Part shown: positions 25,235 through 36,000 of the stretch, in pieces
Position numbering within the stretch: position 1 is the stretch's first letter
Layout: each line of letters starts with the position of its first letter
Origin: Escherichia phage vB_VIPECOOM01
Reading direction: 5' to 3' (one strand)
Sequence record: OQ721909
Length of the DNA: 64,000 nucleotides
Program-made: the position numbers and the translations under genes
Notes under the pieces: model-generated
The model's input: only the letters and a program-made list of their open reading frames with translations
The model's database searches: none
Told to the model about the DNA's origin: nothing

Positions 25235-25287
25235 CCTCATGTTATGTAAGTAAAATTACTATAACACAACACGAGGGACTTGTAAAC
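25235..25287 (-). promoter_or_regulatory. conserved 53-bp early-promoter element, copy A (upstream of alt.-3-like ORF)
   Basis: Minus-sense 'GTTTACaagtccctcgtgttgtgttatagta...'; 49/53 identical to copy B. Confidence 0.55.
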
Positions 25288-27344
25288 TACATTTTGAACT
25301 TTTTAGACATTCCGTTGATGTTAACCAAAGAAGCCAAGATTTGAGAAACTTCGTTTTCCTCTTCTTTTGATTCTTCTACAAGGAATTGATTAAATCCAGC
25401 CATTGGACGAACTTCACCAGTTTCCATCAGATGGTCGCCATCATATACCGATTCTTCTAATTGTTCAGAAGGAGGAACGATTGTGCCTTCGACTAGATAC
25501 TTATTATAAGCAGTTTCTTTCATCATGTACGTACTCACTTTATTAATCTTCAGTAGAATTCCACGTGGTAGAATAATTTCAGCTTCTGATGGAAATCCTG
25601 ATAAATGACCTGGAACGATAACTTTGATTCGCTCAGCTCCTTTAATTACCATACCAACGCTAGTTTCAGCATCTTCATTCGCATAAGCAGAGCGACTGCC
25701 CATATGCATCAAATCTTCTGCGTCAACTGAACCTTCTCCTTCACCAGAAAATACTGCACCGGAATCATCTAGAGCCATATAGTTTTTACCATACTCACCG
25801 AAGATATTTGGTTTAAGCGATGTGGATACGAAGTTCTTGAAATAAAACATTTTATTTTCAATATTATGGCGTAAAGTTTTGAAAGTAACTTCTTGTCCAC
25901 GGTAAAGTGTAGTTCCTGGAGGAAGAACTGAACCTTTAGCAAAGGCAGAATCCATTGTCTCGATGTGTTTAATAGCTCGTTCCATATATTCTTCACGGGT
26001 AGAATCTGGTTTACCTAAAAGGAACGAGTTCATTTCAACATATGAATCTGCACAATAATCTTCAATTACATCAGATTCAGCTTGAGTCAGTCCTTTTGGA
26101 GTTACTTCGGTGCTTGCGTATTCATATGCCTGGGCGGCAGATTCATTAATCAATTTATAAATGCCATTCATGACAAATTGAATAATAGCTACCTTTTCAT
26201 CTGGCGTGGCTTTAGAACCTTTAACTAAATCATTAACAATTTTCTTAATAACATCAAAGCTGTTAGAAATATTAATATCAGAAAGATCACTTAAAATTTT
26301 ATCAGTTTTATAATCAAAAAATTCTTTATTCTTTAAATATTCTTGAGAACCTTGATATGTTATATCGCTCTGTAATTTAATAGATGGATCACGTAAACGT
26401 GCATGAGCCAATGCAATATGATTTCGGAAGCTTTCTAGTTCATAATCGTTAGATTTAAAACGAGAAGCGCTTCTCATACCACCTATAGCTCCTTTGCTGA
26501 AGTTTGAACCAATTTGAATAACGCCAGAGTTCATTGATCCTTCTGCTTTATATACCGGAACTTTAGATTCAAACTCTTGATATTTCTTAGCAGCGAAGCT
26601 ATCGCCCTGAAGTGAAGCATCAACAGTAGAATATTGAGCTTGTGCTGCTAATCGACGACTAATTTTAGTTTTCTGAATAACAGCTTGATCCGTGCGCTTA
26701 TCATTTTCTAAAGCAATAGAAGCAGCAACAGCAACAGCTTTAGGAACAGCATTACCCGTTTTAACGTCTACATAAACATCACCAACCTTTGATTCAACTT
26801 TTGTGAATAACTCAGTTGAAATAGGAGGTACACCTGGAATGTCTTCTAAATTGGCATTTTTACGGTAAACCATAATATATGCATACTTTTTATCGTAATC
26901 CCAGATTTCCTTTAAAAGAACATATCGACCTGCTCCTTTAGTACGTACTAAACGGTCGGCAATAACTTGCATTTGACGAGCTGCGCCGTTTGTTTTACTC
27001 TTTAGTACGCGGAATAAGCATGCATCAATTTTATACTGTTTCATTGTTTGAAGAGCAGTATCAAAAACCGCATTAATGACACCAATTGGGTTTCCACCCA
27101 AGTTTTTAAGTTTAACTAATGATAGTTTTTCATTGACACCTATCATTACGATATGCATCATTTTATCGCCTGGCTTAACGTTTTTATTTGTATCACCACC
27201 AGAGGTGTATGTACAAAATCTAAATCCAGGAAGCACACTTTCTTCACCGGCTTGAATAGCAAAAATTTGAGGTATTTTATGCTTAGGATTTAAGTTAACA
27301 ACCGGCGCCGAAGCGCCGTCAAATAATTCTGTAATAAGTTCCAT
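25287..27344 (-). CDS. Alt-like ADP-ribosyltransferase paralog
   Basis: 685 aa; N-terminal about 230 aa near-identical to adjacent Alt; ART motifs 'LYRGQ' (Arg), 'FVSTSL' (S-T-S), C-terminal 'YDGDHLMETGE'. Confidence 0.85.
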   Translation of the reverse strand: MELITELFDGASAPVVNLNPKHKIPQIFAIQAGEESVLPGFRFCTYTSGGDTNKNVKPGDKMMHIVMIGVNEKLSLVKLKNLGGNPIGVINAVFDTALQTMKQYKIDACLFRVLKSKTNGAARQMQVIADRLVRTKGAGRYVLLKEIWDYDKKYAYIMVYRKNANLEDIPGVPPISTELFTKVESKVGDVYVDVKTGNAVPKAVAVAASIALENDKRTDQAVIQKTKISRRLAAQAQYSTVDASLQGDSFAAKKYQEFESKVPVYKAEGSMNSGVIQIGSNFSKGAIGGMRSASRFKSNDYELESFRNHIALAHARLRDPSIKLQSDITYQGSQEYLKNKEFFDYKTDKILSDLSDINISNSFDVIKKIVNDLVKGSKATPDEKVAIIQFVMNGIYKLINESAAQAYEYASTEVTPKGLTQAESDVIEDYCADSYVEMNSFLLGKPDSTREEYMERAIKHIETMDSAFAKGSVLPPGTTLYRGQEVTFKTLRHNIENKMFYFKNFVSTSLKPNIFGEYGKNYMALDDSGAVFSGEGEGSVDAEDLMHMGSRSAYANEDAETSVGMVIKGAERIKVIVPGHLSGFPSEAEIILPRGILLKINKVSTYMMKETAYNKYLVEGTIVPPSEQLEESVYDGDHLMETGEVRPMAGFNQFLVEESKEEENEVSQILASLVNINGMSKKFKM

Positions 27345-27347
27345 GAT

Positions 27348-29444
27348 TTATCCTTGAACGAACTTGTAAGGCATGTTTGTAATATCTATGCAAGACGCAA
27401 TAATTCCAAGAGATGATTCTGCTTTCTGTTTAACATTTGATGAAACAAATGATGCAAAGTCAACTCTGTCTTCTATTTCAATATCACCTGTCATTGCAAC
27501 CAATTCACCAGTTTCCATTAAATGGTCTCCATCATAGATTACCGATTCGGTGAGTTCTTCCGTAGTCATAACTTCAGCTTGAATGAGTTTTGTATTATTA
27601 GATGTTGTTCCGTCATTATTGGAAGCATCAGTTATTTTATTAACTTTGACCATCAATCCGCGTGGTAAAATAACTTCAGCTTCAGTTGCTATTCCGAGAC
27701 TTCCTGGATATACAACATTAACTTTATGAGCTCCATCAATTGCCCATCCTATTTGAACTTTAACGTATTCAGGATTTTCTTTATACGCTCTTATTTCGTT
27801 TGGATTAATAGTTATTCCTTCTTCATTTTTATCAACTGTTAATTCATTGCGAGCTTCTGGTTCTAAAAGACCAATACCAGCATGCGTAATTCCAAAACGT
27901 CCAAAAATGATAGGAGTTAAAGAAGTAGATACAAAATTTCTGAAATAGAACACTTTATTTTTAACTAGTGCTTCGTATATAGGAGCAGTCATACTTTGAG
28001 CACGATAAACTGTAATGCCTTCTGGTATACGGTCACCATTTTCAAAGGCTGAATCTAAATTATTTATCGCAGATTCAATTTCTTTTTCACTCATTACATC
28101 ATATCGTTCTGGATTATAGCGTCCTAAAAGAAGATTATTGATGTCAGTATATCCTGATCCACAATACTCTCTAATGCCGCGCTTTTGCGATGGAGTATAT
28201 TTAGAACCATCACGGGCAATAGTAATATCAATCATTGGACCTGCACCAATTCCAGAAAAGCTATAAATCATTCGTTTGAGGAATTTAGTTTTTGCTGCGT
28301 TCCAGGAATTTTTAGTTATTTCTTCCCAGACTTCATCTGGCTGTCCTTTACGGGTTTTATTATGTTTATCAAGCCAAGTATCTTTATATTCTTCAAAGAA
28401 TTTATTAATAGCTGCTGCATACTTCTCTAAACATTTTATTGAAGTAGTTGGTTCATTTTTGATCGCGTTAAAAATTACATCTTTAATTTTTTCAGAAACT
28501 TCATTAACCTCACTTTTTGAAAAGAATTTATAGTCATAGTGAAGTTCATCTGCAGTCCCTTCGGCAATAATTTTTGCTGCCTTAGTTTTAGAAGCTAATG
28601 AATTAATTCCAAGTTTCATTTCTTCCGCTTCGGGAATTAAAGGAGCTGTAGCAGGTTTATTGAAATTAGCTGCAGTAGATTCATACTTCTGGAATAATTC
28701 ACTTTCAAATCTAGAAGATTCCAATGACTGACTTTGTGCAATTGCTCTACGGGAAATTTTAACTTTAACTATTACAGCTTGGTCAGAACGTTTATCGTTT
28801 TCTTGCGCAATAGATGCTGCAATTGCCTCATTTTTAGTTACTTGAGCTCCAGTATCTTTATTGATATAAACATCGCCGACCTTCGATTCAACTTTAGTAA
28901 AGAGCTCGGTACTAATTTCTGGAACTCCTGGAATGTCTTCTAGTGATACATTTTTGCGATGTATAAGAATATATGCATACTTTTTATCGTAATCCCAGAG
29001 TTCCTTAAGAAGGACGTATCTGCCACCTGAACGACTACGGATAAGTCTATCAGCAATAACTTGAATTTGTCGAGCTTGACCAGCAGTTTTAGACTTAAGA
29101 ATACGGAGCATACAGGCATCAATTTTATACTGACGCATCGTCTGCATTGCAACAGTAAAAACTGAATTGATATAATTAATTGGGCTTGGACCGAGACCTT
29201 TTAATTTAGCAATTGAACCTTTAGCAGTTAATGTAAAAGGAACAATATGCATCATTTTATCGCCCATTTTTAAATCGCGATTAGTATCACCTCCAGATGT
29301 ATAGGTACATAAACGAAAGCCTGGTTGTTCAATTGCGTCATCAACATGAACTGAAAAAATTTGCGGTATTTTCTTCTTTGGATTTAAGTTTGTAATCGGA
29401 AGAGTAGTATCTTCGTCAAATAATTCTGTAATGAGTTCCATCAT
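27348..29444 (-). CDS. alt: Alt, packaged mono-ADP-ribosyltransferase
   Basis: 698 aa; ART motifs 'VYRAQ', 'FVSTSL'; late promoter TATAAATA 15 nt upstream; adjacent to gene 30 as in T4. Confidence 0.9.
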   Translation of the reverse strand: MMELITELFDEDTTLPITNLNPKKKIPQIFSVHVDDAIEQPGFRLCTYTSGGDTNRDLKMGDKMMHIVPFTLTAKGSIAKLKGLGPSPINYINSVFTVAMQTMRQYKIDACMLRILKSKTAGQARQIQVIADRLIRSRSGGRYVLLKELWDYDKKYAYILIHRKNVSLEDIPGVPEISTELFTKVESKVGDVYINKDTGAQVTKNEAIAASIAQENDKRSDQAVIVKVKISRRAIAQSQSLESSRFESELFQKYESTAANFNKPATAPLIPEAEEMKLGINSLASKTKAAKIIAEGTADELHYDYKFFSKSEVNEVSEKIKDVIFNAIKNEPTTSIKCLEKYAAAINKFFEEYKDTWLDKHNKTRKGQPDEVWEEITKNSWNAAKTKFLKRMIYSFSGIGAGPMIDITIARDGSKYTPSQKRGIREYCGSGYTDINNLLLGRYNPERYDVMSEKEIESAINNLDSAFENGDRIPEGITVYRAQSMTAPIYEALVKNKVFYFRNFVSTSLTPIIFGRFGITHAGIGLLEPEARNELTVDKNEEGITINPNEIRAYKENPEYVKVQIGWAIDGAHKVNVVYPGSLGIATEAEVILPRGLMVKVNKITDASNNDGTTSNNTKLIQAEVMTTEELTESVIYDGDHLMETGELVAMTGDIEIEDRVDFASFVSSNVKQKAESSLGIIASCIDITNMPYKFVQG

Positions 29445-29464
29445 ATCCTCTCTAGTGTTTATTC

Positions 29465-29472
29465 TATTTATA
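29465..29472 (-). promoter_or_regulatory. late promoter TATAAATA (alt)
   Basis: Plus 'tatttata' = minus TATAAATA about 20 nt upstream of alt ATG. Confidence 0.6.
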
Positions 29473-29477
29473 AAATT

Positions 29478-29495
29478 AAAGGCCCGAAGGCCTTT
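29478..29495 (-). terminator. hairpin between alt.1-like ORF and alt late promoter
   Basis: aaaggcc-cgaa-ggccttt. Confidence 0.5.
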
Positions 29496-29682
29496 AATAA
29501 TCTAGTGGTAAGAGAGTACGGTATATTTCAAACTTCGGACCTTTTTCATAGGCATCAAATGTTTCTGTAAATTTATTATAAGCATATGCATCTACAAATT
29601 CAAGAACGATTTGTGATACAGAAGTAGAAACATCTCCACCTTCTTTTTGAGCCACGACAATTGTTTCTAAGTAAGCTTTCAT
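29494..29682 (-). CDS. hypothetical protein (alt.1-like)
   Basis: 62 aa, ATGA-type overlap with gene 30 stop. Confidence 0.5.
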   Translation of the reverse strand: MKAYLETIVVAQKEGGDVSTSVSQIVLEFVDAYAYNKFTETFDAYEKGPKFEIYRTLLPLDY

Positions 29683-31139
29683 AGACCAGTTACCTCATGA
29701 AAATCACCAAATACATCCTCGAATGTATTAGCTTTAGTTTTATCTTCACGTAAACGAATCGCAATTGGAAGAAATAATTTAACGTAATCAGTGCGGCCAT
29801 CAGATTTTAACCAACCATTGCATTCGCACTCTAGAATTTTTCCAATATAATAATTTTGGTTTTCCATAATGCGAGTACGGTCAAGTTCATGTGATTTTAC
29901 ACCGGCTTTATCTTTTAAGCCTGAACCTGCATTTACTTTAATTTTTCCACACTCTGATTCAAGAATAAATCCACCTGCTTTAGTAGGGTCTTTACGGTGA
30001 GGATAAATTCCTACAATTTTTAAATCAACATCAATTACTTCTTTAAATTTATAAAGATTTTTTGAACGAGCATTTTCCCACAATCCATCGGTATTTTTGA
30101 GAATAATACCTTCAAGACCTTGGTCAATATATTTTTTATAAATTACCTTAGCTTCATCTAGGTTATTTACTACCTGGTTTTCAATTAAAATTACTTTATC
30201 ATATCCTGATGTCATTTGTTCTAGTTTAGAAAAACGTACATCATATTTTAAACGAAACGTCGGAAGACCGTATATTTCTACCAACGGAACATAATCCCAG
30301 ACCTGAAACTTCATGCATTTGGCTTCTTTTTCTGAAATAGTTCCCTTTAAAGATTTATTGGCGATTCCATTAGAAGCAGTACGAGATTCAGCTACTTCGG
30401 CAAACTCTTTAGCTTTACTGATTTCAGGAGCGTCAAAAAGAAAATCTAGGCCTTCTGGTTCCTTTTCAACTTGCTCATGGTATACCAATTCGCCATCAAT
30501 TAACACACCTTCTGGATGAATCTGGCGGGCTTCAGCGGTCATTTTGATTAACTCTTCCTTAAGAAGATCTAATCCTAGATATTCATTACCAGCTCGTGAT
30601 AAAAGACGAACATCATCTAATTCATCACCTCGAACTTCAGCAAAACACCGAGCTCCATCTGCTTTTAACTGTGCAAAGGCTGGAAATTTGATATTCTTAC
30701 TAATGCCTTTTTCATCATAAGAACTTGCCAGCATTTGAGGTTGTTCAGGAATTAAACCTGGCCAAACTTTGTTTGCAATAGATACTGAAGCACCGCATTC
30801 AAGGTCTCGCATCATAACTCGACGCAAAACTTCAACATCATCCTTTTTACCATCGGTGATATATCCAGTTAATTCCTCAATTGCTGCATTGCCAGTTAAT
30901 TTCCGAGTAGCTAACGTGAATTCAATGAAGTCAAGCATATCGGTAATAGTCAACATTCCAAAACTCTGGGTAGCAATACCAGGTTTAGGCCATTTCTTGA
31001 TATAATACTGTAACCCACGAGAATAAGTCAGACGATATACTCGTTTAAGCAATTCATTATCTTTATTCTTTTCAAGAATTGCTTGCTTCTGCTTAGTTGA
31101 TCCAATAGATGCTATTTCATTCAGAATTTTAAGAATCAT
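29679..31139 (-). CDS. 30: ATP-dependent DNA ligase gp30
   Basis: 486 aa; motif I 'KADGAR'; matches recalled T4 ligase. Confidence 0.97.
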   Translation of the reverse strand: MILKILNEIASIGSTKQKQAILEKNKDNELLKRVYRLTYSRGLQYYIKKWPKPGIATQSFGMLTITDMLDFIEFTLATRKLTGNAAIEELTGYITDGKKDDVEVLRRVMMRDLECGASVSIANKVWPGLIPEQPQMLASSYDEKGISKNIKFPAFAQLKADGARCFAEVRGDELDDVRLLSRAGNEYLGLDLLKEELIKMTAEARQIHPEGVLIDGELVYHEQVEKEPEGLDFLFDAPEISKAKEFAEVAESRTASNGIANKSLKGTISEKEAKCMKFQVWDYVPLVEIYGLPTFRLKYDVRFSKLEQMTSGYDKVILIENQVVNNLDEAKVIYKKYIDQGLEGIILKNTDGLWENARSKNLYKFKEVIDVDLKIVGIYPHRKDPTKAGGFILESECGKIKVNAGSGLKDKAGVKSHELDRTRIMENQNYYIGKILECECNGWLKSDGRTDYVKLFLPIAIRLREDKTKANTFEDVFGDFHEVTGL

Positions 31140-31405
31140 TGTTCATCCTTCAAAGTTTGATTTACATCTCTATTATAAATCAATTCATCATTAAGCTCAG
31201 GCAAAGACTTATGATATGTAGTTCTAACTTTATTTCCTTGCATCCAGTGCTTGACGTAAATGAAACCTTGCTCTACACATTTTTTAAAAATTCGTTCGTC
31301 TTTTTGAGCTCGGAATTCTGGATTGCATCTAAAAAATTGATTTACGTGACCGTAATCACGTGTAGTATTACCTTCATTTTCATAAATAGTATGAACAACA
31401 AACAT
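31136..31405 (-). CDS. hypothetical protein (30.1-like)
   Basis: 89 aa, coupled upstream of gene 30. Confidence 0.55.
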   Translation of the reverse strand: MFVVHTIYENEGNTTRDYGHVNQFFRCNPEFRAQKDERIFKKCVEQGFIYVKHWMQGNKVRTTYHKSLPELNDELIYNRDVNQTLKDEQ

Positions 31406-32244
31406 TAGAATGCTCCTTGAAAAATATTATCACCACTAGTAGGTCTATTATACAAATACTCTATGCCACCAGGTTTAATATAGTTCCATGTCTGAAACGG
31501 ATGTGTCTGATATGGATGATATAGATGATTATAAGGATTTAATCCAGGCGTTCTCCAGGTAGTGTTCCAAGGAAAAGAATCATTTTTAACCATCTTCTCA
31601 ATTAAATCTTTTATAGCTTTTTCACTATCAAAACTTTCTTTATTTTCCTTCGGCGAAAAAAGCTTATTTTCTACATCATTCCATGTATAAACTCGCTGTG
31701 CAGTTTTTGGAATATTGTCACGCTCTCCTCGAGCCATCCAATAAACTGGAACATTTAATATTTCACTCGCATGATCGCAGTGATGAGCGAGATCGTCAAT
31801 ATAACAAATTACGTTATATTTCTCTTTTGCCTTTTTGAACAGCTCTTCTTTTGAAGAATCATGACCACACATCATTACTTCTGAGAAGGCACCAGGAAAA
31901 AGAGCATTCAAATTAAATTGACGATTCAACAGAGCGTCAATAGAATCACCCAATGCTGTAACAGCTACAAAATTATAATCTTCTTTTAATTTGTTAATTA
32001 CACACAGGGCATCTTTATACGGAGACAAGTAACGAATAAAATCTGAACGATTGTATTTTTCAATTAACTTGACGCCAAGTTCTTCGTCACAATTAAAGAG
32101 TTTACCTGGAGAAATAAATTTCTCATCTTGGATCATTTTTAAAATATGTTCTAATGGAAGATTATATTTCTGAGCAAAATAAGGAAGGCCTGATTGCCAG
32201 CTTAAACATACTCCATCAATATCAGTTAAAATAGTAGGCTTCAT
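31405..32244 (-). CDS. HAD-superfamily-like hydrolase (30.2-like)
   Basis: 279 aa; N-terminal 'ILTDIDGV' resembles HAD motif I DxDG(T/V). Confidence 0.65.
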   Translation of the reverse strand: MKPTILTDIDGVCLSWQSGLPYFAQKYNLPLEHILKMIQDEKFISPGKLFNCDEELGVKLIEKYNRSDFIRYLSPYKDALCVINKLKEDYNFVAVTALGDSIDALLNRQFNLNALFPGAFSEVMMCGHDSSKEELFKKAKEKYNVICYIDDLAHHCDHASEILNVPVYWMARGERDNIPKTAQRVYTWNDVENKLFSPKENKESFDSEKAIKDLIEKMVKNDSFPWNTTWRTPGLNPYNHLYHPYQTHPFQTWNYIKPGGIEYLYNRPTSGDNIFQGAF

Positions 32245-32699
32245 AGAGAGTCTCTTAATAGGTTTAACACATCAATAAATTCAGCTTCGGTTAGTATTGT
32301 ATCATCTTTTGTTAGACCACTAGCCATGCTGTGCTTCAAAACTTTTCCTTTCGAAGCTTGTAATGCATCACGAAAGCCCCTGTTTTGGATCGCTGCTTCA
32401 AAATATGCATTTGTGTATAATTCTTTCCACGCTGGAGAGTATCTTGAAAATGGAACTCCAAGCCAGAACAACGTGCCACGGTCCTGAGCTCTAGCATAAG
32501 ACCTTCCAGCTTGTTGCGCATCCAATCCGGACATCCCAAATATACGTCTTTGCTGTTCAACATTTTTCACCTTACATCCTTGGAGGAATCCTTCGAGACC
32601 TCCAAATTGGATACCATCCATAACGAAAGGCCATTGGGCGAAATTACTTAATGCACATGATGGCCATCTAAAATTGCTTCTTATCTCTAGCTCAGACAT
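32241..32699 (-). CDS. NADAR/YbiA-like (DUF1768) putative N-glycosidase (30.3-like)
   Basis: ORF-track start 32705 is TTG; ATG 32699 gives 152 aa; motif 'ALSNFAQWPFVMDGIQFGGLEGFLQGCK' vs YbiA 'FSNFAAWP..VDG...SEHYFQAQK'. Confidence 0.6.
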   Translation of the reverse strand: MSELEIRSNFRWPSCALSNFAQWPFVMDGIQFGGLEGFLQGCKVKNVEQQRRIFGMSGLDAQQAGRSYARAQDRGTLFWLGVPFSRYSPAWKELYTNAYFEAAIQNRGFRDALQASKGKVLKHSMASGLTKDDTILTEAEFIDVLNLLRDSL

Positions 32700-32898
32700 T
32701 TTCAATACTTATAATTTCAACATCAGCCCAATGACCATAGCAAGGAAGACGAAATTCAACTGGCCAGTTAGGGTCCTTTTCTAATATAATAGACTTAACT
32801 TGTGGTTCTTCATGTTCATCGGTATACGGACCTTTATACGTTACTTTATATGTGACCTTAATGTACTGAATTCCAAAAATCTTATTAATTATATTCAT
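32692..32898 (-). CDS. hypothetical protein
   Basis: 68 aa; overlaps flanking ORFs by 4-8 nt (coupled array). Confidence 0.45.
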   Translation of the reverse strand: MNIINKIFGIQYIKVTYKVTYKGPYTDEHEEPQVKSIILEKDPNWPVEFRLPCYGHWADVEIISIENV

Positions 32899-33092
32899 AC
32901 TAATTCCTTTAATCCATAGATAGGAGATAATTCATCACCCATACGAAGGTCTTCATTTCCATCTACCCAGGAAACAATATAAGCCTCTTTTATTTGAATA
33001 CCACTCCATTTAAATGGAGGTAGAACCTTAGAAATTAATCCAGGTATACCGACTCCCTTTAATTCAACAGTTTGACCCAAAAAGAATTTCAT
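32895..33092 (-). CDS. hypothetical protein
   Basis: 65 aa; ATGA coupling. Confidence 0.45.
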   Translation of the reverse strand: MKFFLGQTVELKGVGIPGLISKVLPPFKWSGIQIKEAYIVSWVDGNEDLRMGDELSPIYGLKELV

Positions 33093-33379
33093 TAGAACCT
33101 CATCTGAAAACCATGCGATTTAACATTACCGCCGTCAATATCAGAAATGTTAATTTCACGCGCAATTGAAGGGTCAATGTCAATTTCACGATTGAGTTTA
33201 GCGATAGTTAGAGTATCGCGCCCATTTACAGTACGGAACTCTAAAGGGCAGACTACATTAACGTAGTTTTTAATCGATTCACTGGTAGGCTGCAAATGAG
33301 CAGGAAGGTCTTTAGGCGCCTTAGAGAAAACCACTTCACAGAAATTTTTGCGGGTATCAAAATAAGTAGTCATAAACAT
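33092..33379 (-). CDS. hypothetical protein
   Basis: 95 aa ORF with ATG. Confidence 0.5.
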   Translation of the reverse strand: MFMTTYFDTRKNFCEVVFSKAPKDLPAHLQPTSESIKNYVNVVCPLEFRTVNGRDTLTIAKLNREIDIDPSIAREINISDIDGGNVKSHGFQMRF

Positions 33380-33419
33380 AGTATTTTCCTCAGTAAGGGG
33401 CCGAAGCCCCTATTTTATT

Positions 33420-33785
33420 TTAAATATCAAATTCGTTAAGAACTACATCAAAAATCGCTTCAAGATGCTCAGGTTTAGCTCTGTTACTCAGAATATGACG
33501 AATCCAAGTTTTAACCAGAAGCTTACGATTGACGCCATTCCAGCAAGGATGAGTCCCTAAATCACGTTGACGGAAATCATCATCTAATGCGATTTTAAAA
33601 GAAGAACCTTCTTTCGTGATTGAAACTGTGATGCCATTTTCAAATCGCATATAAACGTAGTTAGGAGTCATATACTGTTCAATTTCGCATACTGATCCAT
33701 TTTGATGTTTCCAAAGGCAAATAGTATCATTAGAACCTGCAATACCGTTAGAAACATATTTACGTTCAAAGTTGATGTAGTTCAT
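33420..33785 (-). CDS. hypothetical protein
   Basis: ORF-track start 33797 is TTG; ATG 33785 preceded by GGAG; 121 aa; early promoter upstream. Confidence 0.5.
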   Translation of the reverse strand: MNYINFERKYVSNGIAGSNDTICLWKHQNGSVCEIEQYMTPNYVYMRFENGITVSITKEGSSFKIALDDDFRQRDLGTHPCWNGVNRKLLVKTWIRHILSNRAKPEHLEAIFDVVLNEFDI

Positions 33786-33821
33786 TTTATTCTCCAAGAT
33801 GTTTAATTGTGGTACAGGTAT

Positions 33822-33850
33822 ATAATATCATATCCTGTACCAAAGTAAAC
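33822..33850 (-). promoter_or_regulatory. early promoter (GTTTAC, 17 nt, TATTAT) with embedded inverted repeat
   Basis: Minus-sense 'GTTTACtttggtacaggatatgaTATTAT'; IR ggtacagg/cctgtacc at 33811-33841. Confidence 0.5.
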
Positions 33851-33852
33851 AA

Positions 33853-34185
33853 TTATTTTACTACTTTCCAGTGCTGCATGTCAAGTTTACCAACTTTTTT
33901 CATCTTCTCAATTAAGCGTTCTGCACGTTGGCGAGCTGTAACATAATACCATTCGCCTAATTCATTTTGTTCAATTTTTCCAACGATTACTGTATTCAAT
34001 TCATAAATCCAACCAGTAAAGAAATTATGAACTTGAATTGTAAAGGTGAAATCTGTTCCCATACCTTCTGTTGTTTCTACTTCAATAATATCACCTTCAA
34101 CTGCCATTAAGAACCACATAGTTTCATCATATTTACCATTGAAGCATTTAGTTTTAACTGTAGCGTTCAGATTAATCGTTTTCAT
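33853..34185 (-). CDS. hypothetical protein
   Basis: 110 aa; early promoter upstream (34214-34242). Confidence 0.5.
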   Translation of the reverse strand: MKTINLNATVKTKCFNGKYDETMWFLMAVEGDIIEVETTEGMGTDFTFTIQVHNFFTGWIYELNTVIVGKIEQNELGEWYYVTARQRAERLIEKMKKVGKLDMQHWKVVK

Positions 34186-34213
34186 TTTATTCTCCTTTGC
34201 TTGTGTAAGATAA

Positions 34214-34242
34214 TACTATCACAAAGGAACTATACTGTAAAC
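34214..34242 (-). promoter_or_regulatory. early promoter (GTTTAC -35)
   Basis: Minus-sense 'GTTTACagtatagttcctttgtgatagtattat'. Confidence 0.45.
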
Positions 34243-34272
34243 AACTTTGTGCAATCTTTGGAAAATAAAAAA

Positions 34273-34290
34273 GGACTCCCGAAGGAGTCC
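34273..34290 (-). terminator. hairpin terminator downstream of small basic ORF
   Basis: ggactcc-cgaa-ggagtcc followed on minus strand by T-run. Confidence 0.6.
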
Positions 34291-34295
34291 TCAAC

Positions 34296-34514
34296 TTATG
34301 CTTTCTGCTTACCAAAACGAGAAGCATCATCTCGAAGAACCGCACGTGCTCGGCGCATGATCTTCTCAACAGTTTGATTGATACGAGAGTTCGACCCACG
34401 CTTGTAACCAGCGCGTTTAGAATCACCAACTTTCTTTTCAACTGCTTTCTTTGCTTTAGCTTGTTTTGCCATTATAAATTCTCTTTTAAATGAAAATGCA
34501 GGACTTATTGGCAT
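34296..34514 (-). CDS. small highly basic protein (start uncertain; may begin at internal ATG 34472, 'MAKQAKAKKAVEKK...')
   Basis: 72 aa Lys/Arg-rich ORF; hairpin terminator immediately downstream. Confidence 0.4.
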   Translation of the reverse strand: MPISPAFSFKREFIMAKQAKAKKAVEKKVGDSKRAGYKRGSNSRINQTVEKIMRRARAVLRDDASRFGKQKA

Positions 34515-34666
34515 TGCCTGCGCAAGCCCTCAAGGGGAACATAGGTTTTGAGTATTTACCGACAGGATAACCATAAACCTCGTCAACATTCAAGAGGTAC
34601 ACCGTAAAACAAAGTTCGACGGCTCCTCGATTTTAGCTCACACTAAGGCAGTGAATCTCCAATAAA

Positions 34667-34915
34667 TTACTTCAGTGTTACCACAAAGTGACGAACTGCT
34701 TTTCGTGCAGCAGAAGCCAGAGGCTTAGCATACTTAAGTTCATCTTTTTCCTGGAGCTCAGCAGCTAATGCAGTTTGAGCAGGATTCAGATGTTTGAAAT
34801 AACGCAGGATTTCAAGGGCTTCGGCTTCAACATCAATAGATGCGCCATAGTTTTCGTGACCATTATTCCATGCGTTTCGTTGCAGTTCAAGAGCGTGTTG
34901 TAATTGTTTAATCAT
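34667..34915 (-). CDS. rIII: rIII lysis-inhibition accessory protein
   Basis: 82 aa as T4 rIII; syntenic next to gene 31. Confidence 0.85.
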   Translation of the reverse strand: MIKQLQHALELQRNAWNNGHENYGASIDVEAEALEILRYFKHLNPAQTALAAELQEKDELKYAKPLASAARKAVRHFVVTLK

Positions 34916-35054
34916 TTAAAAATTCTCGTTAGAGATTAAAACTCGGTAGTCACGTTCTTCTGAATTTCATCTTCTTTCGACAGATCTCTCAGTTGTAGAC
35001 TACCACGTAGAATTGTTCGGTTAACTTATTATTCCGACACCCAATTCATATTAT

Positions 35055-35062
35055 TATTTATA
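35055..35062 (-). promoter_or_regulatory. candidate late promoter (rIII) with long leader
   Basis: Minus-sense TATAAATA immediately downstream of gene 31 stop. Confidence 0.35.
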
Positions 35063-35398
35063 TCACTTATAAAGACACGGAATAGCTTTATAGTGACAGG
35101 TAACGAATTTTTGTTTAATTTCTTTTGGCTGCTTAAGACCTAGAGCTACAAAAGGATGCGGAACGTTTCGAATTTGACCAACTGGAAGAGAAGTCAAATC
35201 ACCAACTTCGCAGAAACCTTCAGGAACATCAGGACCAACAGAGTGAACTACACACAGTTCAGGAACTTCACCTTGAACACGTTTACCGATAATGAGTCCT
35301 GATTCTGTAACTTCTTCATCACCAGCTTGCGCAGGTTCAGAAACTAAAATAACATATTCACCGACAGCACGAATTGGTAGCTGTTGTACTTCAGACAT
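35063..35398 (-). CDS. 31: co-chaperonin gp31 (GroES-like)
   Basis: 111 aa as T4 gp31; MotA-box middle promoter upstream. Confidence 0.92.
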
Positions 35399-35428
35399 CG
35401 TTTTTCCTTTTTGTTAACAGATGAATTA

Positions 35429-35453
35429 ATAATAACAAATAATTCTTAAAGCA
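35429..35453 (-). promoter_or_regulatory. MotA-dependent middle promoter (gene 31)
   Basis: Minus-sense 'aTGCTTTA', 12 nt, then 'TATTAT'. Confidence 0.6.
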
Positions 35454-35454
35454 T

Positions 35455-35763
35455 TTATTTACCAATAAATTGAAGCAAATGCTCAACTTTCATACCATTA
35501 ACGGAAATCAATTTGTCAATAGAAAAACCTCGCCATGCACCAATCTCAACATCAAATACTGGAATCATATCAGTAGATTCTTTCCGAGTAGATTCAGTCA
35601 ATTTACCGGTTTGCATGGTTGGCATAAAGTCTGCATCACGAGTACCTTTCATAGTACGAATAGTACCATCAGACTTTTCAAAAACCACGTTTGAAATACC
35701 CATGGACAATTTAGTTTTCAAAATTTCACGAATTGCTACTTTCTGCTCAGTTGTCAGTTTCAT
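35455..35763 (-). CDS. hypothetical protein (31.1-like)
   Basis: 102 aa ORF. Confidence 0.5.
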   Translation of the reverse strand: MKLTTEQKVAIREILKTKLSMGISNVVFEKSDGTIRTMKGTRDADFMPTMQTGKLTESTRKESTDMIPVFDVEIGAWRGFSIDKLISVNGMKVEHLLQFIGK

Positions 35764-36000
35764 TTATTTACCTATCACAGTTTTAATATGAGTTGTTCCA
35801 CGTTCTTTAAGAGTGGAAAGTAATTTTTGGCATTTTTCTAAATCAGATTTCCAACTATACGGTCTATCAATACAAACCCATTCTGACTTATAATACTGCT
35901 TCCATTTAGAGAAAAAATATTTCTTATACTCTACAGCAAATGAAATGTTCTCGTTAGAATAAGAACTAATTGCTGTGAGCTGTACCAAACGAAATTTCAT
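35764..36000 (-). CDS. hypothetical protein (31.2-like)
   Basis: 78 aa ORF coupled to cd. Confidence 0.5.
   Translation of the reverse strand: MKFRLVQLTAISSYSNENISFAVEYKKYFFSKWKQYYKSEWVCIDRPYSWKSDLEKCQKLLSTLKERGTTHIKTVIGK

Follow-up and report, generated by a model that had tools for sequence, protein, structure and literature searches.

The stretch of DNA analysed here (the window; 64,000 nucleotides, nt, of Escherichia phage vB_VIPECOOM01, sequence record OQ721909) carries on its minus strand a small gene that is, by its sequence, the orthologue of adfN (gene 30.3) of phage T4, and whose product, AdfN, is very probably a NADAR guanine-ADP-ribose N-glycosidase that counters the toxin–antitoxin system DarTG1 (Table 1). 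The reading frame runs from an ATG at 32699-32697 to a TGA at 32243-32241. The open reading frame caller had placed the start at an in-frame TTG at 32705, two codons earlier, giving 154 amino acids (aa); the T4 gene is annotated from the ATG and, counted in this way, is likewise 459 nt long. An earlier note, made from the sequence alone, had described a 152-aa frame at this place with the motif ALSNFAQWPFVMDGIQFGGLEGFLQGCK, which corresponds to AdfN residues 16-43, and both its coordinates and its sequence were found to be correct.

In a full-length comparison, 148 of the 152 residues (97%) are shared with T4 gp30.3 (NP_049816), and the product matches the Pfam family PF08010 (Phage_30_3) over the entire model (positions 1-138/138; E = 7.2e-70; score 233.6 bits, cutoff 36) as well as phrog_652 (E = 2e-51). 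At the DNA level, 29 of the 459 nt differ from T4, altering 20 codons synonymously and 4 non-synonymously, and the adfN frame therefore bears the signature of purifying selection. Matches to gp30.3 were found by tblastn in 1509 phage records, approximately half of the matches being below 60% identity and belonging to Klebsiella, Acinetobacter, Aeromonas, Vibrio and other T4-superfamily phages. The Pfam match, the number of phage records and the excess of synonymous changes confirm that the open reading frame is real, far beyond chance.

The surroundings of the gene are also those of T4. The T4-like Tequatrovirus vB_VIPECOOM03, an Escherichia phage (OQ721911.1, 127000-130000), matched a 3-kb query (31000-34000) at 100% identity, and many T4-like Tequatrovirus phages matched it at 97-98%. 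The order on the minus strand is as in T4 (NC_000866), namely 30.8, 30.7, 30.6, 30.5, 30.4, 30.3, 30.2, 30.1, 30 (DNA ligase), alt.1 and alt, followed here by a second alt paralogue and then alt.-3. The gene thus described shares with T4 adfN (anti-DarT factor NADAR; PMC11825919) its length, its neighbours, the overlapping start/stop junctions, the residues E36, K43 and H123 and the C-terminal helix, the final 28 residues being the same. It differs from T4 by four conservative-looking substitutions (L56M, A60D, K107R and I125M), which lie away from the catalytic residues and would be expected to make no functional difference.

The relationship of this phage family to the NADAR/YbiA superfamily emerged at the level of profiles and structure. 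NCBIfam models gave no match to AdfN, and a single-sequence phmmer search against the PDB returned noise only, so that a family profile was needed to reach YbiA. This profile was built from 50 homologues from a large protein database, down to approximately 34% identity; several of them carry the JGI name 'YbiA (DUF1768 family)', and one distant homologue (P0069) has precomputed matches to PF08010 and PF08719 alike. When the profile was searched against the PDB with hmmsearch, the sole meaningful sequence was E. coli YbiA (2b3w; E = 0.0022), and the alignment paired the ALSNFAQWPFVMDGIQFGGLEGFLQGCK stretch with YbiA residues 29-83 (FSNFAAWPIKVDGKTWPTSEHYFQAQKF), precisely the stretch whose resemblance to YbiA/NADAR (DUF1768) had been pointed out in the earlier note. 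A profile comparison by hhalign with YbiA from MG1655 reached a probability of 94.7% (E = 6e-8). An AlphaFold2 model, computed from an alignment from which the T4 sequence had been left out, reached a predicted local distance difference test (pLDDT) score of 94.2 and a predicted template modelling (pTM) score of 0.89. Comparison of such a model with YbiA had been put forward as a check in the earlier note; the top three Foldseek matches in the PDB were YbiA 2b3w (E = 3.6e-4), the G. lovleyi NADAR 8bat and the P. nicotianae NADAR 8bau, and no credible match was found there below these three. The alpha-helical core with two small flanking beta-sheets by which the YbiA fold is recognised is present in the AdfN model.

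The active site follows the same pattern. In the 50-homologue alignment, neither E36 nor H123 varies and K43 is conserved to at least 90%, and the AdfN helix E-x-[FY]-x-Q-x-x-K pairs with SEHYFQAQK in YbiA. The residues equivalent to the Glu touch the distal ribose in the structure from P. nicotianae (PMC11543638, PMC11125620). The model places H123 directly after strand 120-122, and the C-terminal helix spans residues 138-151. It has been established that the charged residue of the last strand distinguishes the NADAR subfamilies, being Glu in YbiA-type proteins, Asp in DarG1-type proteins and His in phage NADARs (PMC11125620, PMC11543638). Profile comparison, predicted structure and active site are three independent lines that agree, and the membership of AdfN in the NADAR/YbiA superfamily is confirmed at the level of profile and model.

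The function of the T4 orthologue has been extensively studied. Gene 30.3 was among the phage NADARs found bioinformatically by Schuller et al. 2023, according to Johannesman et al. (PMC11825919), and the phage NADARs were discussed in that study as a subgroup of their own, in which the position that defines the subfamilies holds His (Schuller et al. 2023; PMC11543638). It was demonstrated in vitro that the purified T4 NADAR hydrolyses guanosine-ADP-ribose and not thymidine-ADP-ribose (Toxins 2024, PMC11125620), and hydrolysis of guanine-N2-ADP-ribose by the T4 protein is documented in three studies (PMC11125620; PMC11825919; PMC12945103). Guanosine-ADP-ribosylated RNA is also a substrate (PMC11833690), and cytidine-ADP-ribose is not removed (PMC12945103). 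In vitro, T4 AdfN clears the ADP-ribose from DNA that DarT1 has modified; the enzyme does not bind DarT1 itself (PMC11825919).

The connection with defence was established through phage crosses, by which the DarTG1 resistance of T-even phages was mapped to gene 30.3, which was renamed adfN (Johannesman et al., Nat Commun 2025, PMC11825919). In that study, deletion of adfN made T4 sensitive to DarTG1, the DarTG1 sensitivity of phage RB69 was attributed to a frameshift that removes the final 15 AdfN residues, and ectopic expression of adfN rescued RB69, so that the gene is both necessary and sufficient for overcoming DarTG1 in infection (PMC11825919). The substitutions E36A and K43A abolished the function of T4 AdfN (bioRxiv 10.1101/2024.07.11.602962; published as PMC11825919). 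In independent confirmation, a T4 transposon screen comparing control and DarTG1 conditions (Data S6) gave a log2 fold change (log2FC) of -7.25 for 30.3, with an adjusted P of 0 (bioRxiv 10.1101/2025.11.20.689424). Only two genes in all, 30.3 and 30.4, were significant under DarTG1, insertions in adfA/61.2 being neutral (log2FC -0.34, not significant; 10.1101/2025.11.20.689424). The only alleles for which resistance to DarTG1 has been demonstrated are those of T4 and T2 (PMC11825919; HIDEN-SEQ Data S6). The earlier note had proposed an N-glycosidase that reverses guanine ADP-ribosylation and serves as a counter-defence against DarT-like toxins, and both proposals are borne out by these results on a T4 protein 97% identical to the one described here. 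Enzyme activity, specificity, phenotype and evolutionary origin were published between 2023 and 2026, and the function is therefore already known.

In Shigella phage JK42 (MK962756.1) and others, at 91-94% identity, the match is confined to AdfN residues 1-144. These may be RB69-like alleles of adfN, C-terminally altered or truncated; if so, the truncated alleles of JK42-type phages would predict sensitivity to DarTG1.

Transferred to vB_VIPECOOM01, the mechanism would be as follows. On infection of a DarTG1 host, DarT1 would ADP-ribosylate guanine in the phage DNA and replication would be blocked; AdfN would then cut the N-glycosidic bond between guanine and ADP-ribose, restoring the intact base and freeing ADP-ribose, and would thus act in effect as a phage-borne 'orphan antitoxin'. 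Such a transfer of function to the vB_VIPECOOM01 allele is well justified, because it is full length, its C-terminus is identical to that of T4 and the catalytic residues are all present.

The comparison with the cellular antitoxin DarG1, the NADAR antitoxin of DarTG1 (e.g., G. lovleyi 8bat and the E. coli C7 NADAR), places the phage protein at some distance from it, since the two share 14% identity. DarG1 is the larger protein, in which an additional N-terminal helix and sheets form an electropositive channel, the phage protein being a bare core (PMC12945103); DarG1 also has Asp at the last-strand position where AdfN has His123. In addition, DarG1 is encoded beside darT1 and protects uninfected cells, while T4 AdfN is an orphan that affords no such protection. 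No DarT-like gene stands beside adfN in the window, where the neighbours are 30.4 and 30.2 and the nearby ADP-ribosyltransferases are both of the Alt type (PF03496). Other phage-borne orphans are known: AdfN-Bas32 and AdfN-Bas60, the NADARs of T5-like phages and Vequintavirinae, resemble T4-type AdfN in being guanine-specific and in countering DarTG1 (PMC11825919). Unlike T4-type AdfN, however, they stem from other NADAR branches by independent acquisition, and they neutralise DarT1 without infection and rescue unrelated phages, neither of which the T4-type protein does (PMC11825919).

Several observations weigh against a DarTG1-countering NADAR enzyme at this locus. The NADAR model PF08719 gave no match to AdfN at E <= 1, nor did any of the PADLOC defence models, among which DarG would be represented, at E <= 0.01. 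Membership in the superfamily therefore rests on profile and structure comparison, and the fold proposed in the earlier note stood through the YbiA profile match, the AlphaFold2 model and Foldseek, but not through PF08719; the phage family simply has its own Pfam model, PF08010. At the level of phenotype, T4 AdfN fails to neutralise DarT1 in uninfected E. coli (PMC11825919; PMC11125620) and rescues T5 and Bas25 weakly (PMC11825919). The simple picture of a free enzyme that cleans DNA is incomplete, and a further feature of T-even infection is needed. Furthermore, that the vB_VIPECOOM01 allele would behave like that of T4 despite L56M, A60D, K107R and I125M is inferred from sequence.

Three other roles were considered for the gene. 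A metabolic N-glycosidase of the YbiA type, acting on riboflavin-pathway intermediates in housekeeping or damage control, would be compatible with the shared fold, but the two proteins differ in several respects: E. coli YbiA (2b3w, PF08719/DUF1768) shares approximately 20% identity with AdfN and is chromosomal, adjoining dinG in K-12 within an operon that is reported to be under LexA control (PMC11125620), whereas adfN is phage-borne. The Glu that defines YbiA at the subfamily position is replaced in AdfN by a His invariant in the phage family (rule in PMC11125620), and the phenotype of the T4 orthologue depends on DarTG1, the gene being dispensable on plain K-12 (PMC11825919), which makes a YbiA-type role very unlikely. 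It is extremely improbable that AdfN degrades soluble immune signals or toxins derived from ADP-ribose instead of repairing DNA. Arguing from context, Iyer et al. 2022 (PMC9503650) had proposed such a role for the majority of phage NADAR and Macro domains; however, that proposal predates the experiments, in which T4 AdfN cleared DarT1-modified DNA in vitro and the phenotype was specific to DarTG1 (PMC11825919). AdfN might nevertheless have a soluble molecule as a second substrate.

The third alternative is suggested by the position of the gene. The two alt paralogues, whose nearness the earlier note had rightly remarked, lie on the same strand approximately 2.8 kb downstream (25287-29444), and AdfN could serve in self-protection or editing together with the phage ADP-ribosyltransferases (the Alt paralogues, ModA and ModB) by clearing off-target ADP-ribose from phage nucleic acids. 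In agreement with this, alt adjoins the 30.3-30.2-30 cluster in Acinetobacter phage Acj61 too, and Iyer et al. (PMC9503650) noted early expression of T4-like NADAR genes alongside those for ADP-ribosyltransferases. On the other hand, 30.3 is non-essential on K-12 while Alt, ModA and ModB are all active, which indicates that there is no self-inflicted damage requiring 30.3. In phage KP15, no alt is annotated in the 8.4-kb stretch viewed, yet 30.3, 30.2 and 30 are clustered, and the gene order is in any case the general conserved order of T4-like phages. A functional link between AdfN and Alt, including the tie to injected Alt enzymes that had been suspected from the sequence, was rejected on the evidence that insertions in alt of T4 are without effect under DarTG1 (log2FC -0.01; 10.1101/2025.11.20.689424). 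Self-protection is consequently highly improbable, and the nearness of adfN to alt appears to be a matter of synteny, positional and not functional. The role against DarTG1 is accordingly retained for adfN, and its coordinates are collected with those of the neighbouring features in Table 1.

Table 1. Position of adfN, its notable codons and the neighbouring genes in the window.
Feature	Coordinates	Strand	Description or basis
adfN (T4 gene 30.3 orthologue)	32241-32699	minus	459 nt, 152 aa; predicted single-domain NADAR-superfamily DNA ADP-ribosylglycohydrolase
Codons 36-43 (EGFLQGCK) of the NADAR active-site helix, including catalytic Glu36 and Lys43	32571-32594	minus	Homologue alignment
Codon 123 (His), charged last-strand residue defining NADAR subfamilies	32331-32333	minus	Alignment, model and subfamily rule
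Last 15 codons, C-terminal part of helix 138-151	32244-32288	minus	Segment lost in the inactive RB69 allele; intact here
Gene 30.4 (68 aa), directly upstream of adfN	32692-32898	minus	phrog_2042, no function assigned
Gene 30.2 (279 aa), directly downstream of adfN	31405-32244	minus	phrog_420; HAD-like N-terminus
ORF 30.3' (T4 annotation; 75 aa), in another frame inside adfN, open here	32336-32563	minus	
Alt-type ADP-ribosyltransferase gene, 685 aa	25287-27344	minus	PF03496; second paralogue
Alt orthologue gene, 698 aa	27348-29444	minus	PF03496

The gene directly upstream, 30.4, deserves consideration in view of its behaviour in the T4 transposon screen, in which it was depleted under DarTG1 (log2FC -1.79, adjusted P 0.014; 10.1101/2025.11.20.689424). 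The end of 30.4, with its TGA stop, and the beginning of adfN share 8 nt (ATGTCTGA), so that the adfN start codon lies inside 30.4, and no evident Shine-Dalgarno sequence precedes the adfN start in the junction sequence. This start/stop overlap and the missing ribosome-binding signal suggest that adfN translation is probably coupled to that of 30.4. The likeliest explanation for the depletion of 30.4 is therefore a polar effect on the coupled adfN, the more so because depletion was confined to genes upstream of adfN (30.5 being nominal, not significant) and did not extend to 30.2 downstream. Matches to 30.4 were found in 709 records, almost all of phages named after Escherichia, Shigella, Enterobacteria, Yersinia or Salmonella, a narrower range than that of gp30.3. 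Since T4-type AdfN works fully only in T-even infection (PMC11825919), this narrow range and the depletion in the screen make gp30.4 a candidate for a T-even-specific partner required by AdfN, although polarity makes such a partnership unlikely.

Downstream, the ATG of 30.2 overlaps the adfN stop (ATGA). The product gp30.2 starts with MKPTILTDIDGV, which contains HAD-phosphatase motif I (DxDxV; DIDGV), and is weakly matched by a polynucleotide kinase/phosphatase PHROG (E = 0.002); Pfam gave no match and PDB sequences returned noise only. The 30.3-30.2-30 (DNA ligase) cluster is retained in the distant T4-like phages KP15 and Acj61, which is weak evidence for a functional link because gene order is generally conserved in T4-like phages. 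The HAD-like motif, the start/stop overlap with adfN and the clustering in KP15 and Acj61 had prompted the idea that gp30.2 is the T-even cofactor of AdfN, and this idea was rejected, T4 30.2 insertions being neutral under DarTG1 (log2FC -0.12; 10.1101/2025.11.20.689424).

Within adfN itself, ORF 30.3' might have encoded a second product of the locus, but it is probably not protein-coding. Over the 228-nt overlap, T4 and vB_VIPECOOM01 differ at 22 nt, which alter 18 of the 75 residues in 30.3' and 3 in the adfN frame, and the KP15 30.3 homologue contains no internal same-strand open reading frame of at least 30 aa. A scan for promoters and terminators over 29000-36000 found 28, against 25.5 ± 5.4 in shuffled sequence, and was thus not above expectation.

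The alt region differs from that of T4. The tandem full-length Alt proteins (685 and 698 aa) are 41% identical to one another, and the second gene occupies the site that in T4 holds alt.-1/alt.-2, remnants of an old duplication; vB_VIPECOOM01 thus keeps the alt duplicate intact. The Alt orthologue is 70% identical to T4 Alt overall, but the identity is unevenly spread: approximately 250 residues at the N-terminus and 100 at the C-terminus are near-identical, and the central part, to which much of the catalytic domain belongs, is strongly diverged. Such a mosaic suggests recombination, or diversifying selection acting on the core of the enzyme.

The public records listed for this phage and its close relatives label adfN as 'hypothetical protein'. 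In Klebsiella phage Roth20 (PQ657793.1, 65865-66302), the feature under the gp30.3/NADAR match carries the label 'anti-CBASS protein acb1', apparently a misannotation; in T4, acb1 is gene 57B.

The practical value of the finding lies in annotation and no new biology is opened by it, the enzyme, substrate, phenotype and evolutionary origin having been published. The gene can be named with confidence as adfN, encoding a DNA ADP-ribosylglycohydrolase (NADAR). An intact adfN predicts resistance to E. coli carrying DarTG1, which would be useful for phage therapy and host-range prediction.
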